Assembly (NCBI RefSeq): GCF_030013595.1
Contig: NZ_CP122768.1
Direction: 5' to 3' (one strand)
From: Escherichia coli
Lineage (GTDB): Bacteria > Pseudomonadota > Gammaproteobacteria > Enterobacterales > Enterobacteriaceae
DNA length: 64,000 nt
Shown here: positions 22,883 to 28,558 of the stretch, in pieces
Numbering within the stretch: the stretch's first letter is position 1
Layout of the letters: the number at the start of each line of letters is the position of its first letter
Notes under the pieces: model-generated
The model's database searches: none
Told to the model about the DNA's origin: nothing
Seen by the model: the letters and a program-made list of their open reading frames with translations, nothing else
Program-made: the position numbers and the translations under genes

Positions 22883-23176
22883 ATGGCTGAACACAATATT
22901 ACGCCAGAAGTCATCATTTCCAAAACACAGCGCCGCTGTACCGTGGGTTATCTGCCCAACCGCAGCGACACGCCGGTGATCAAAATCAGCGCCAAATGGC
23001 TGAGAGAAGCGGGATTTGAGATCGGCACTGGCGTTACCGTGAAGATCTCGGAAGGTTGCCTGATCCTGCTTGCGGATAACAACGAAGTACAGGAACTGCG
23101 CAGGGAACTGTATCAGGTTAAACAGGCTGTTAAGGGGATGCGTGACGGGATGTTTAGTGTGCTGAACGAGAGTTAA
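22883..23176 (+). CDS. SymE-like toxin-family protein (AbrB/SpoVT-like fold)
   Basis: 97-aa ORF; segment ISAKWLREAGFEIGTGVTVKISEGCLILLA resembles the SymE core ([28 protein letters not shown]) as I recall it; AAGGTAG upstream of ATG. Confidence 0.6.
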   Translation: MAEHNITPEVIISKTQRRCTVGYLPNRSDTPVIKISAKWLREAGFEIGTGVTVKISEGCLILLADNNEVQELRRELYQVKQAVKGMRDGMFSVLNES

Positions 23177-23243
23177 ATAATAAAAAAGCCGGGAGATTTA
23201 ATGTCTACCCGGCCCACACATTATAATGTGTAAAACATATATT

Positions 23244-23684
23244 CTATTTATTTAAGTATTTTTTAGAGATTCTTAACCACCATGCTTTACCAGAATTAAA
23301 ATTTGAAATTAATACTTTCCCTTTTTTCCTTTTTAAAACATCAAGAATTACAGCATCAGATTTTTTTAATATCCCATCTTCTTGAGGAACACCTAACTCT
23401 ATCAATATATTAATTGAGTCAAATAGATGACCTATCTTTTCATATTCTTCATACAATAAATTACTTTCATTATTCGATATCTGAATTAAGTAATTAAATG
23501 TAACCCCCAAAATATTAGGAAATTTAGAGCTATTGACACTCGATATAAACTCCTGAACAATAGCTCTGTTTTTTAATTTCCCGGCACATAATAAAGCATA
23601 AATATTTCCAGCCAAACGTTCGATATCATGCGGATATCTATATCCTTTAGCAATTATTGCCTTAATTTTCTGTTCAGGAGTCAT
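23244..23684 (-). CDS. candidate Rhs immunity protein (no recognisable family)
   Basis: 146-aa ORF starting 2 nt after the Rhs stop codon, with a GGGAGG Shine-Dalgarno embedded in the last Rhs codons; AT-rich like the Rhs toxin tip. Confidence 0.6.
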   Translation of the reverse strand: MTPEQKIKAIIAKGYRYPHDIERLAGNIYALLCAGKLKNRAIVQEFISSVNSSKFPNILGVTFNYLIQISNNESNLLYEEYEKIGHLFDSINILIELGVPQEDGILKKSDAVILDVLKRKKGKVLISNFNSGKAWWLRISKKYLNK

Positions 23685-23686
23685 TA

Positions 23687-26600
23687 TCAGTACCTCCCGT
23701 TAGGAACAGAAAATCCAGGCAAACGCCTTAGATTTTCCCACGATTCAGGGAAGTGAGTTAAGATCACTGGTGTTTTCCCTATCTGACTTGTTGCAGTAAA
23801 CAAACCTGTTTCAGGATCATAATAGCCTACTCTAGGTTTATTCGTATACCTATCTCTATAAGTAAATTTCCTGCCATTTTGTATCGTGGTTCTTGCACTA
23901 ATATCATATTCTTTTACTGAATTTGCACCGACTTGTGAGCCATGTTTTTCAAAGTGATCTCTTAGGCCCGGCCCATCAACATTTTGTCGTGCTTTATTCC
24001 ATTTTGCATTTTTAGCCGTACCACAAAATAACCCAAGCGGATCGATCCAGCTTAACGGATTTGGCACATAAGCATAGAGGTTCAGCCCACCGTTTAATCC
24101 TATCGGGTCCGTTACCATGAACCGCCCGACATCCGGATCATAGTACCTGTGCAGATTGTAATGCAGCCCCGTTTCCCTGTCGAGGTACTGTCCCTGGTAG
24201 CGCAGGTTCTGCTCCACCCCGCCGTGGTCCTTCTCCTGTATCGTGTTACCCCAGACCTGATACCCCGTCTCCCACACGATTTTCCCGTCGCTGTCCGTCA
24301 TCTCTTCCGGCGCGCCGTTCACATCCGTGTGAAAATACAGTATCCGGTTCGGGCCCTCTTTGCCCGCCTTATCCACCCGCGCCAGCGGTTCATAACTCCC
24401 CGGGTCCCTGTAGATGTACAGGCTGTCTGTTCCCTCCGGCCTGCTCTCCTGCGCCAGCCGCATTCCGTCCCATAAAAATTTTGTCCGGTTGTACGGTTTA
24501 CCGTCAGGACTGATGTGCTGTTTTTCCGTCCGCCTCCCCAGCGCATCGTACACATACCGGTACGTCCCCCGCGCTGTCGTCACTTCCACCATCCGGTGTT
24601 CCGCATCATAACGGTAACTCTGCGTGCCGCTCCGCCCCTCCTTTTCCACCGCACGGCCAAATTCGTCGTAACGGTAGTGCACACCACGGTAAGACATCAG
24701 CCGGTTGAACGGCACCACGCTGTTTTCTGCCGTGGCCCTTTCCCCCGCGCGCCGCGCCAGCAGGTTTCCCGCCGCGTCGTACTGCCAGCTCGCCAGATAC
24801 CCCTCATCCTCCGAGCGGCACGCCGTGATGCGCCCCGTGGGGTCGTAGAAGTAATCCGTTTCCCCCCGCCGGCTGTGCCGCGTCTTCAGCAGTTCATCCT
24901 CGCCACTGTAGCTGTACTGCCGGTCCGTGAACGTCTCCGGTACCCCCCCGCGCATCCCGCTGTATGTCTCCCTGCGCTTCAGCCGCCCGCCGGGGTCGTA
25001 AAGCTGCCGCGTGCTCAGTCGCCCCTGGCTTCTGAGCACTTCACGGTGCAGGGCGTCACGTGTGAACTCGCTGATGACCTCCCGGTCCAGATTTATCTGC
25101 TGGAGATGGCCGCTGCCGTAGTACAGATGACGCTGCGTTCTGCCGTCCGGAAAGGTGGTGGCTGTCCGGTTGCTGAGTTCATCGTACTGATGGGTCAGGA
25201 CGCCCTGCGCCGTCTCCTCAGTCAGCATCCGCCCCAGTCTGTCGTAACTGAAGCGGATAATCTCCGGTGCGTCTGTTTCCCCGGCATCCGACCGTCGGCG
25301 GCGGATTTCCAGTAGCTGGTCTGCCGCATCATGGACGTATTCCGTACGGCTATCGGCTGTCTCCTTTGCCGTAAGCCGGCCCGCCGCATCACGTGCCAGC
25401 CGATGGCGGATTTCACCGCCCCGGTCCCCGGTGAACACCACTTCCGTGACCGCGTTCAGCGCGTTGTAGCGGTACGTCTGGCGGCAGCCGTCCGGATTTA
25501 TCTGCTCCGCCAGACGGTCCAGCACATCATGGCGGAACCGGTAGCTTTCTCCGTTCTCGTTTGTCAGCGTGACCAGACGCCCGTAAGCATCGTACCCGAA
25601 TGCCGTCCTGCGCCCCGTCGCGTCCGTCCGGCTGCGCACCCGGCCCTGCCCGTCCCGCTGCCAGCGCGTTATCCTCCCCATCGGGCTGGTGTACTTCACC
25701 AGCCTGCCCGCCGCGTCCGACTGGTAATTCACCGTGCGGCCGTCCGCCAGTATCACCTCCGTCAGGTGGCCGCTGTCGTCATACCCGTAGCGCGTGCTGT
25801 GGCTCTGCGCGTCTGTCATCCGTATCAGCCGCGTGCGTTCGTCGTAGAACCAGGCCGTCTGCGAGCCGGAACAGTCCGTGTGCCGCATGAGCTGCCCGTC
25901 TTCGTTCCACTGAAGGTATTTATTCCCCCCGCGCGCATCGGTTATCTGCACCACCTGGCCGTGGCGGTCATACTGATACCGGGTGTTCTGCTGCAGCGGG
26001 TCGGTCACCGCAAGAAGATTGCCGCGTTCATCGTACTCACAGCACCAGCTGTTCCCCGCCGCGTCCACCTCCGTTTCCGGCTGGTGCCACACCGGGTGCC
26101 ACTGTGTCTGTGCCACCCGCCCCAGCGGGTCGTGCGTCTCCGTGATATGCCCCTGCCGGTCATACACATAGCGCCATTTGCCGCCCTGCGCATCGGTCAT
26201 TCCCAGTAACAGCCGTTCTTCGTCGCTCCAGCGGAACGTCGTCACCTGCCCGGCTTCGTCCTGGTACGCCGTCACCTGGTTCTGCGCGTCCCACTGATGA
26301 TAACGCGTGCGCCCCAGCCCGTCCGTCACGCACAGCCTGCGTGACGCCAGGCTCCACGCCAGCCGGTACTGTTCACCGCTGTCCGTGTGGTGCCCCGTCA
26401 CCCGCCACGCTGCGTCATCCGGGCCTTCATACCAGCCCCACTGGTAATAATACCCTTCGCCGCCCGGCTGGCGGTGCAGGGTCATGCAGTGGTTTTCGTC
26501 GTAAGCAAACTCGCGCAGCAGGTGTCCCGTGCTGTCGTACACGCCGTTCAGGTCGCCGGCCTCGTCATAGCGGTAACGACGCAGCAGTAAAGGAGCCGTC

Positions 26601-28339
26601 TCAGGGAAATGCTGATAAATCTGTGTCACCCGCCGGGGATGCGCCGCCAGTTCATAATGCAGACGGATGCACGGACGCTGCTGTTCACCGCTGATTTGCG
26701 TGATGCGCCCCAGCTCGTCGTAGTACAGATTCAGACAGTTGCTGTTGCGGTCGCCCAGCATTTTCAGCCGCTGGCGCTGCGGGTGATGCGGGTCGGCCTC
26801 AAACAGAAAAAACTGCCCGTCATCGCTGCTGATAAGCCAGTGCCCCTGCTCACCCCGCCTTACCGCCAGTCCTTCGCCGGGGCTGTAAAACCCGCTCCCC
26901 GGCAGCACGGCCTCCATATCCAGGCGTCGTCCCATGCCCGACACAAAGGTCATACAGTTTTCGTCAGCAGTACCCGGCGTGCGCTCGAGGCTGACTTCAT
27001 ACATCACGCTCCAGCCCTGCCCGAACATCCCTTCCGTGCGGTCGTCACGACTGCTGTACACGCGCTGCCAGTCCAGCGGAAAGTGGCCCGGCAGACTGAA
27101 ATCGAAGTCATCGTCATCCGCCAGATATTTGGCTCCGGTGGCGGCATTGACCGGATGCGGAAGGGCACTGATGGCCTTCTGCGTCATCACCCCCATCCCG
27201 ACACTGGCAGCAAAACAGGCGATTTTAGAAAGCATTTTGCCCGGGCGAAGAAACATCAGCGCCACAGTTGCCACCAGGGTTATCTGCGACCTGCCGCTTC
27301 TGATATCCCTGACCACCAGTAACGGACCGCCAATGCGGACATCCGGTGACACAAACGCCCCGTTCCCCGGCTCATTCACCACCCAGGCCTCGCAGGTGCA
27401 GCGTGCCCCGCTGCGTGCCGCCGGCTGGCTGTTGATACGCACATCCCGCGCGCCTTCCGCGATATATTCCGCTGCGGGCGGTTCATCATCGCCTTTGAAC
27501 AGATTACTGATGCTGCCAATAACCGCATTCACTCCCTGAAAGGCGGTTTCCAGCATACCGCCCGGACTCAGCAGGTTAAGGGCCGTTCCCAGAGGGTCAT
27601 CCAGAAAGGCGGCTTTTTTTTGTGCGAGAAACTGCGTCAGTGAGGAGGGATGTTTATGGCAGTCGATTTTATCGTCAGGGGTCGGGGTGGAGCCCGGGGC
27701 CGCACTGGCCACGGTGGGCTGCCATAGTTCCGACACAAAATGTGTCACGCCATCCACCATTTCAGAACGCCCTTCTTCCGTACTGAGCTGGTCATGCAGC
27801 GCCCGGGACATCAGCACAGGCCCTGTCACCGGGTTAACCGCCAGGGCTATGGCCCCCGCCATTTCCAGATATTCCCCGGCCACATCCCGGAACGTTCTGG
27901 CGTCCTCCTGACGCTGCGCTTCTTCCTGTTCCGCCTTCGCCTGTGCCTCCTGCGCCTCAATGTCCTGCCGCGATGCCGCAGTCGCCGCTGCCCGCGCGGC
28001 AGGTTTGCTGTTGATCCATGTGTCGCCAGAGCCGGTGAGGATGTAACCTTCAATCTGAGGCGGGAAAAGCCAGTTCGCCAGTTGCTCACTTTCCCTACTG
28101 ATTCGGTCATTCCAGCCCTGATACGACATAAATACCGCTGTTGCTATACCGATCGCTAAAATGGTTGAGCAGCCCAGCGTTGCCACTTCAACTCCGCCCA
28201 GCGCCGCCATGGTTCCGACAACCAGAACATCCACCAGGGCTGTGGCGGCAACCTCTACAACTGCCCCCAGCACATCTGCCATAAACGACGTATGCAGCAG
28301 GGCATCACCCTGCCTTGCCGCCCAGAATGCCTCTTCCAT
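23687..28339 (-). CDS. Rhs-family polymorphic toxin: prePAAR motif and hydrophobic segments, PAAR-like region, YD-repeat core, DPxGL motifs, variable C-terminal toxin domain
   Basis: ORF track 1550 aa; N-terminal AARQGDALLH (AARxxDxxxH) then hydrophobic stretches; many YD/RYxYD repeats; VTDPIGLNGG...PNPLSWIDPLGL followed by a ~113-aa basic tail; occupies the K-12 rhsC position but differs from K-12 RhsC at both termini. Confidence 0.92.
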   Translation of the reverse strand: MEEAFWAARQGDALLHTSFMADVLGAVVEVAATALVDVLVVGTMAALGGVEVATLGCSTILAIGIATAVFMSYQGWNDRISRESEQLANWLFPPQIEGYILTGSGDTWINSKPAARAAATAASRQDIEAQEAQAKAEQEEAQRQEDARTFRDVAGEYLEMAGAIALAVNPVTGPVLMSRALHDQLSTEEGRSEMVDGVTHFVSELWQPTVASAAPGSTPTPDDKIDCHKHPSSLTQFLAQKKAAFLDDPLGTALNLLSPGGMLETAFQGVNAVIGSISNLFKGDDEPPAAEYIAEGARDVRINSQPAARSGARCTCEAWVVNEPGNGAFVSPDVRIGGPLLVVRDIRSGRSQITLVATVALMFLRPGKMLSKIACFAASVGMGVMTQKAISALPHPVNAATGAKYLADDDDFDFSLPGHFPLDWQRVYSSRDDRTEGMFGQGWSVMYEVSLERTPGTADENCMTFVSGMGRRLDMEAVLPGSGFYSPGEGLAVRRGEQGHWLISSDDGQFFLFEADPHHPQRQRLKMLGDRNSNCLNLYYDELGRITQISGEQQRPCIRLHYELAAHPRRVTQIYQHFPETAPLLLRRYRYDEAGDLNGVYDSTGHLLREFAYDENHCMTLHRQPGGEGYYYQWGWYEGPDDAAWRVTGHHTDSGEQYRLAWSLASRRLCVTDGLGRTRYHQWDAQNQVTAYQDEAGQVTTFRWSDEERLLLGMTDAQGGKWRYVYDRQGHITETHDPLGRVAQTQWHPVWHQPETEVDAAGNSWCCEYDERGNLLAVTDPLQQNTRYQYDRHGQVVQITDARGGNKYLQWNEDGQLMRHTDCSGSQTAWFYDERTRLIRMTDAQSHSTRYGYDDSGHLTEVILADGRTVNYQSDAAGRLVKYTSPMGRITRWQRDGQGRVRSRTDATGRRTAFGYDAYGRLVTLTNENGESYRFRHDVLDRLAEQINPDGCRQTYRYNALNAVTEVVFTGDRGGEIRHRLARDAAGRLTAKETADSRTEYVHDAADQLLEIRRRRSDAGETDAPEIIRFSYDRLGRMLTEETAQGVLTHQYDELSNRTATTFPDGRTQRHLYYGSGHLQQINLDREVISEFTRDALHREVLRSQGRLSTRQLYDPGGRLKRRETYSGMRGGVPETFTDRQYSYSGEDELLKTRHSRRGETDYFYDPTGRITACRSEDEGYLASWQYDAAGNLLARRAGERATAENSVVPFNRLMSYRGVHYRYDEFGRAVEKEGRSGTQSYRYDAEHRMVEVTTARGTYRYVYDALGRRTEKQHISPDGKPYNRTKFLWDGMRLAQESRPEGTDSLYIYRDPGSYEPLARVDKAGKEGPNRILYFHTDVNGAPEEMTDSDGKIVWETGYQVWGNTIQEKDHGGVEQNLRYQGQYLDRETGLHYNLHRYYDPDVGRFMVTDPIGLNGGLNLYAYVPNPLSWIDPLGLFCGTAKNAKWNKARQNVDGPGLRDHFEKHGSQVGANSVKEYDISARTTIQNGRKFTYRDRYTNKPRVGYYDPETGLFTATSQIGKTPVILTHFPESWENLRRLPGFSVPNGRY

Positions 28340-28357: not shown

Positions 28358-28558
28358 TTAATTCGTCCCGGCTTCCTGCCGCATCCTGAAGCGCAGATTC
28401 TTTTTAATTTCAGCCCAGCGCGTCATATCTGCCGGGGTCAGCGGTGTGGTTCTGGCGTAGGTGAAGGCCATCATGACCCGTTCACCCGGCAATACAAATG
28501 CCACCTGACACTGGTACACCTGCTCGTTACCCCGGAGAAACTGGCTCTGTATTTGCAA
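28358..28558 (-). other. possible remnant of a gene upstream of rhs (truncated Eag/DUF1795-like chaperone?)
   Basis: 66-codon ORF initiating at TTG with an in-frame stop two codons upstream, ending 18 bp before the Rhs start; no ATG start or clear RBS; identity not verifiable by eye. Confidence 0.25.

Follow-up and report, generated by a model that had tools for sequence, protein, structure and literature searches.

Two groups of described Rhs systems are close to the locus presented here. With E. coli K-12-type RhsC and other rhs-CT/rhsI modules it shares the position (ybfA to ybgA), the Rhs core, a DPxGL junction, AT-rich cassettes of a C-terminal domain (CT) and an immunity gene, and orphan modules downstream. 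With Ntox47 of the Salmonella Rhs2–SciX pair it shares an Rhs-borne BECR fold (barnase/EndoU/colicin D–E5/RelE; predicted here), occurrence in Enterobacterales, a PxxxxDPxGL junction and an immunity gene placed downstream. Further points of comparison are the tRNase domain of colicin D (Protein Data Bank (PDB) 1TFK and 5ZNM; Pfam Colicin_D, PF11429) with its partner ImmD, and the CdiA-CT of E. coli O32:H37 (PDB 8EY4 chain A), which is delivered by CDI (type V) rather than by an Rhs protein and a type VI secretion system (T6SS), as proposed here. The 64,000-nucleotide stretch of E. coli DNA that we analysed (the window) probably carries an rhsC-locus allele of a PAAR–Rhs effector that would be delivered by the T6SS and whose last 113 residues form a horizontally exchanged toxin cassette. 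This allele class differs from K-12-type RhsC in its N-terminal AARxxDxxxH motif, hydrophobic segments and PAAR motif, and the cassette differs from other rhs-CT/rhsI modules in being rare (6 of 5426 genomes) and in encoding toxin and immunity families without names.

The Rhs gene (23687–28339, minus strand) is an intact 4.65-kb open reading frame (ORF) in the window and encodes a PAAR–Rhs effector of 1550 aa. From the N terminus, the protein comprises an AARQGDALLH motif, hydrophobic segments, a split PAAR motif (Pfam PAAR_motif at residues 291–321, E = 1.2 × 10−4, with a second weak piece at 97–118), DUF6531 (Pfam), YD repeats (NCBIfam RHS_core and YD_repeat_2x, the latter with E = 3 × 10−64), the Rhs-associated core at residues 1360–1437 (NCBIfam Rhs_assc_core, E = 1.7 × 10−28) and the toxin tip. 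It therefore has the PAAR domain expected of a protein mounted on VgrG. The core closes with PLSWIDPLGL (24029–24058, minus strand; read directly from the sequence), which fits PxxxxDPxGL, quoted as the Rhs self-cleavage motif in the Rhs2–SciX preprint, and marks both the conserved core end and the cassette junction. Repeats and core that end in this motif and are followed by a variable CT are the layout of Rhs polymorphic toxins.

The tip itself spans 113 aa (Rhs residues 1438–1550; 23690–24028, minus strand) and consists of exactly the residues that the first-pass annotation had placed after DPLGL; the end given there, 24030, falls 2 nt into the last Leu codon of that motif. Its description as basic was borne out (18 Lys and Arg in 113 residues, pI 9.9), as was the reported fall in GC content, from 0.616 in the Rhs core to 0.395 in the tip and 0.283 in the following ORF, against 0.521 for the whole window. 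This composition break is not a chance fluctuation, because it coincides with the position at which homology to other E. coli alleles breaks off (24032). The downstream ORF of 146 codons (23244–23684, minus strand), proposed to be translationally coupled to the Rhs gene, begins 2 nt past the Rhs stop codon (TGA at 23689–23687, then TA, then ATG at 23684–23682). Its GGGAGG Shine–Dalgarno sequence (23693–23698, minus strand) does lie in the final Rhs codons, those for N-G-R-Y, 8 nt 5′ of the ATG. The 146-aa product is also basic (pI 9.5), a feature that the first-pass annotation did not mention.

Allele comparison by megablast against 5426 complete E. coli genomes delimited the exchangeable cassette. 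Homology to other alleles ends at 24032 and restarts at 23213, and most alleles align only at query positions 1–769 and from 1588 onward; the intervening segment (23214–24031; GC content, 0.326) comprises the tip, the 146-codon ORF and a first hairpin, and is flanked by the conserved Rhs core and the symE region. The core is common to 250 genomes. One of the six genomes with the cassette, that of strain AR_0077, holds it as a promoterless orphan module that retains 27 core codons and also supports these boundaries, and a symE copy or remnant follows each module in that strain. Other alleles carry different tips, one of them, for example, with a barstar-family immunity gene. Variable cassettes of CT and immunity gene that are swapped among alleles, together with orphan modules, are again characteristic of Rhs polymorphic toxins. 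The conserved 3′ flank holds a SymE-family gene (22883–23176, plus strand; NCBIfam PRK13605, E = 3.6 × 10−12, a match below the curated cut-off; PGAP annotation) that is convergent with the 146-codon ORF. Between the two genes, two hairpins followed by a U-run (23181–23232, minus strand; predicted folding energy, −20.8 kcal/mol; z = −4.6) are likely to form an intrinsic terminator. A simple consensus scan for promoters and terminators, which performed no better than on shuffled sequences, did not report this terminator, and Rfam gave no RNA family between 22000 and 30000.

Neither the tip nor the 146-aa protein has a significant match in Pfam, NCBIfam, PHROGs, PADLOC or PDB sequences, and 82 diverse relatives of the tip have no significant match in Pfam, in agreement with the earlier failure to assign either protein to a named family. 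The PDB sequence matches that did appear were short chance matches to a YYDPETG motif and to protein G. No sequence profile ties the toxin family to Colicin_D or to any Ntox family, and the motif strings were not found in the supplements of a 2026 catalogue of Salmonella T6SS effectors. In an exhaustive profile search, the toxin domain was represented by 192 clusters at 50% identity. It lies nearly always at the extreme C terminus of multi-domain relatives of up to 5106 aa, whose N-terminal parts include eCIS_core (seven proteins), PT-HINT (two), RHS (two) and WXG100_2 (one). Stand-alone homologues of about 100 aa also exist; the 105-aa ORF that partners them has no Pfam family. On sequence evidence, the tip and its immunity protein thus belong to two widespread families that are uncatalogued in the databases searched. 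The suggestion that they may be a new toxin–immunity pair is supported, with the refinement that the pair extends beyond this strain and stands for two families that are widespread and unnamed.

The same annotation had taken the downstream ORF for the immunity gene of the tip, and gene order in distant relatives agrees. In all seven loci where a carrier-borne or near-full-length homologue of the toxin was followed by readable DNA, the next gene encodes a homologue of the 146-aa protein, 2–13 nt away, on Rhs, eCIS and other carriers. Such adjacency conserved across unrelated carriers is the mark of a cognate toxin–immunity pair. When profiles were built independently for the enterobacterial and for the distant immunity proteins, the two aligned with a probability of 97.9% (hhalign, E = 4.4 × 10−13). 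A chance ORF is ruled out because homologues are conserved down to 15–19% identity and the two profiles match at that E value. A sensitivity-limited search gave 31 matches to the immunity family, and orphan copies are present in Rhs immunity islands. Conserved motifs are LLYEE-x-x-K-x-x-x-L-x-D-x-I and a C-terminal W135. The protein is predicted to be all-helical, with eight helices, and has no sequence or fold match to known immunity families (Pfam Imm families, barstar, ImmD and CdiI structures); a fold search with its model returned generic helical-repeat matches only. In a fused toxin–linker–immunity AlphaFold2 model, both domains were confident (pLDDT > 90 for most of the immunity part), with an overall pTM of only 0.56.

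The structure model of the tip (pLDDT, 91.9; pTM, 0.85) has a helix–helix–four-strand topology, that is, N-terminal helices packed on a four-stranded antiparallel β-sheet, the arrangement that defines the BECR fold. Foldseek matches against the PDB had weak E values (best, 0.015), and the likeness of the tip to known BECR RNases is structural only, as judged from the model. At that level, the toxin family appears clearly linked to colicin D-type tRNases. An earlier guess that the tip is a small nuclease is consistent with this predicted fold, which narrows the substrate from 'RNA/DNA' to RNA. Over 82 family members, conservation reaches 100% for W10, 99% for H29, 96% for R66, 94% for H92 and 90% for H25; in the model, H25, H29, T48, R66 and H92 (90–99%) are distributed over helices 1 and 2 and strands 2 and 4. 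The conservation table and the secondary structure together point to H25 and H29 in the H25-F-E-K-H29 segment of the first long helix (codons at 23942–23956, minus strand) as candidate catalytic histidines. H92 on strand 4 (23753–23755, minus strand) is a candidate second catalytic histidine, and R66 on strand 2 (23831–23833, minus strand) may serve in phosphate binding or transition-state stabilization. The catalytic His611 of colicin D is likewise located on the helix (PMC9990079). In contrast to colicin D, the tip family conserves three histidines together with an invariant Trp; the tip itself and all 82 family members lack a match to the Pfam model of colicin D, and neither tip nor family matches colicin D chains in the PDB by HMMER. 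The immunity protein also differs from ImmD, having eight predicted helices and no sequence similarity to any PDB chain. For 8EY4 chain A, HMMER detected no sequence similarity to the tip family, not even when the family profile was searched at E ≤ 10, and its immunity chain is not among the matches to the model of the 146-aa protein. A literature search on PDB 8EY4, E. coli O32:H37 CdiA and the RefSeq accessions found no paper, including on the activity of 8EY4.

Together, these observations are best explained by an RNase that is delivered by the T6SS, needs no metal and probably acts on tRNA, paired with its cognate immunity protein, an explanation that as a whole we consider likely. The Rhs shell would cleave itself at PLSWIDPLGL and free the tip in the target cell, where the domain, folded as two helices packed on the four-stranded sheet, would act as an endoribonuclease with an active site formed by H25 and H29 of helix 1 and by H92 and R66 of the sheet. 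By likeness to the closest structural relatives, the most probable substrate is tRNA, and its cleavage would lead to translation arrest. The producer would be shielded by the 146-aa helical protein, which may bind and block the toxin and whose translation probably relies on ribosomes that have just finished the Rhs gene. Counting against this explanation are the basic character of the E. coli immunity protein, unlike that of typical acidic nuclease inhibitors, the weak Foldseek E values and purely structural likeness to known BECR RNases, the low pTM of the fused model and the truncated chaperone gene described below.

A bolder reading of the same evidence is that the tip founds an unrecognized BECR-fold clade, defined by its signature of Trp, three His and Arg, with an RNA target or chemistry unlike that of every characterized tRNase or rRNase toxin (cleavage at a new site, say, dependence on a cofactor such as EF-Tu, or modification of RNA in place of nuclease action). 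The immunity protein would then represent a new helical-repeat fold, and the toxin domain would have been co-opted for secreted weapons (T6SS Rhs, eCIS, T7SS-type and PT-HINT) as well as for intracellular modules of two genes, reminiscent of toxin–antitoxin pairs. We regard this combination as possible and somewhat unlikely.

Another explanation concerns deployment and does not conflict with the toxin mechanism: the module may be a relic in which the Rhs protein is no longer loaded on the T6SS and the locus is kept mainly for immunity against neighbours with the same toxin. Upstream of the Rhs gene lies a remnant of an Eag/DcrB-type chaperone gene, which bears on effector loading (28358–28558, minus strand; an ORF of only 66 aa). 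PGAP annotates the corresponding position in two other inspected strains as 'DcrB-related protein, incomplete, missing N-terminus', a pseudogene. The promoterless orphan in AR_0077 and the orphan immunity genes of the 146-aa family elsewhere would also suit a relic. However, the Rhs ORF is intact in the window and in both of those strains despite the remnant, and a chaperone could come in trans. We consider loss of deployment rather unlikely. Given the truncated gene, the effector of this locus may need a chaperone from another locus to be delivered, or may not be delivered.

Alternatively, the tip could be a ribosome-dependent mRNA interferase like RelE/HigB, or a gyrase poison like ParE, instead of a free tRNase; we judge this improbable. 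That the tip is a divergent Ntox47 domain (PF15540), an EF-Tu-binding BECR toxin of the Salmonella Rhs2 type that works as in Rhs2–SciX, is very improbable: the sole sequence link to that BECR-fold Rhs tip of Enterobacterales is a single weak, sub-threshold Pfam match (E = 0.14) that is obtained with 27 pre-toxin residues included and vanishes for the tip alone, and the identity, followed through Zhang et al. (2012) and the Rhs2–SciX preprint, is rejected because none of the 82 relatives reproduces the match (0/82 at E ≤ 0.1). Nor are the conserved residues the same, as the Ntox47 motif string (D, [HRK], RT, E, D, PH, H, [DE], R; Zhang et al. 2012) does not map onto the W/H/H/R/H set of the tip family, and a search of PDB chain sequences, rather than a direct comparison with SciX (a structure of which the preprint describes), detected no relative of the immunity protein.

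Rhs, CDI and eCIS toxins are among the main sources of novel antibacterial enzymatic activities, and unnamed toxin–immunity pairs escape annotation pipelines. The concept of how Rhs-type systems work is unchanged by our analysis, and an uncatalogued family is useful and unsurprising for such systems. What the analysis yields is a definition of two uncatalogued families, with conserved residues and a confident predicted fold, which is enough to build profile models and to choose the point mutants with which biochemical work could begin. On this basis, orphan immunity genes and tips labelled 'hypothetical' can be annotated in E. coli, Pectobacterium, Citrobacter, Caulobacter and many metagenomic eCIS loci.

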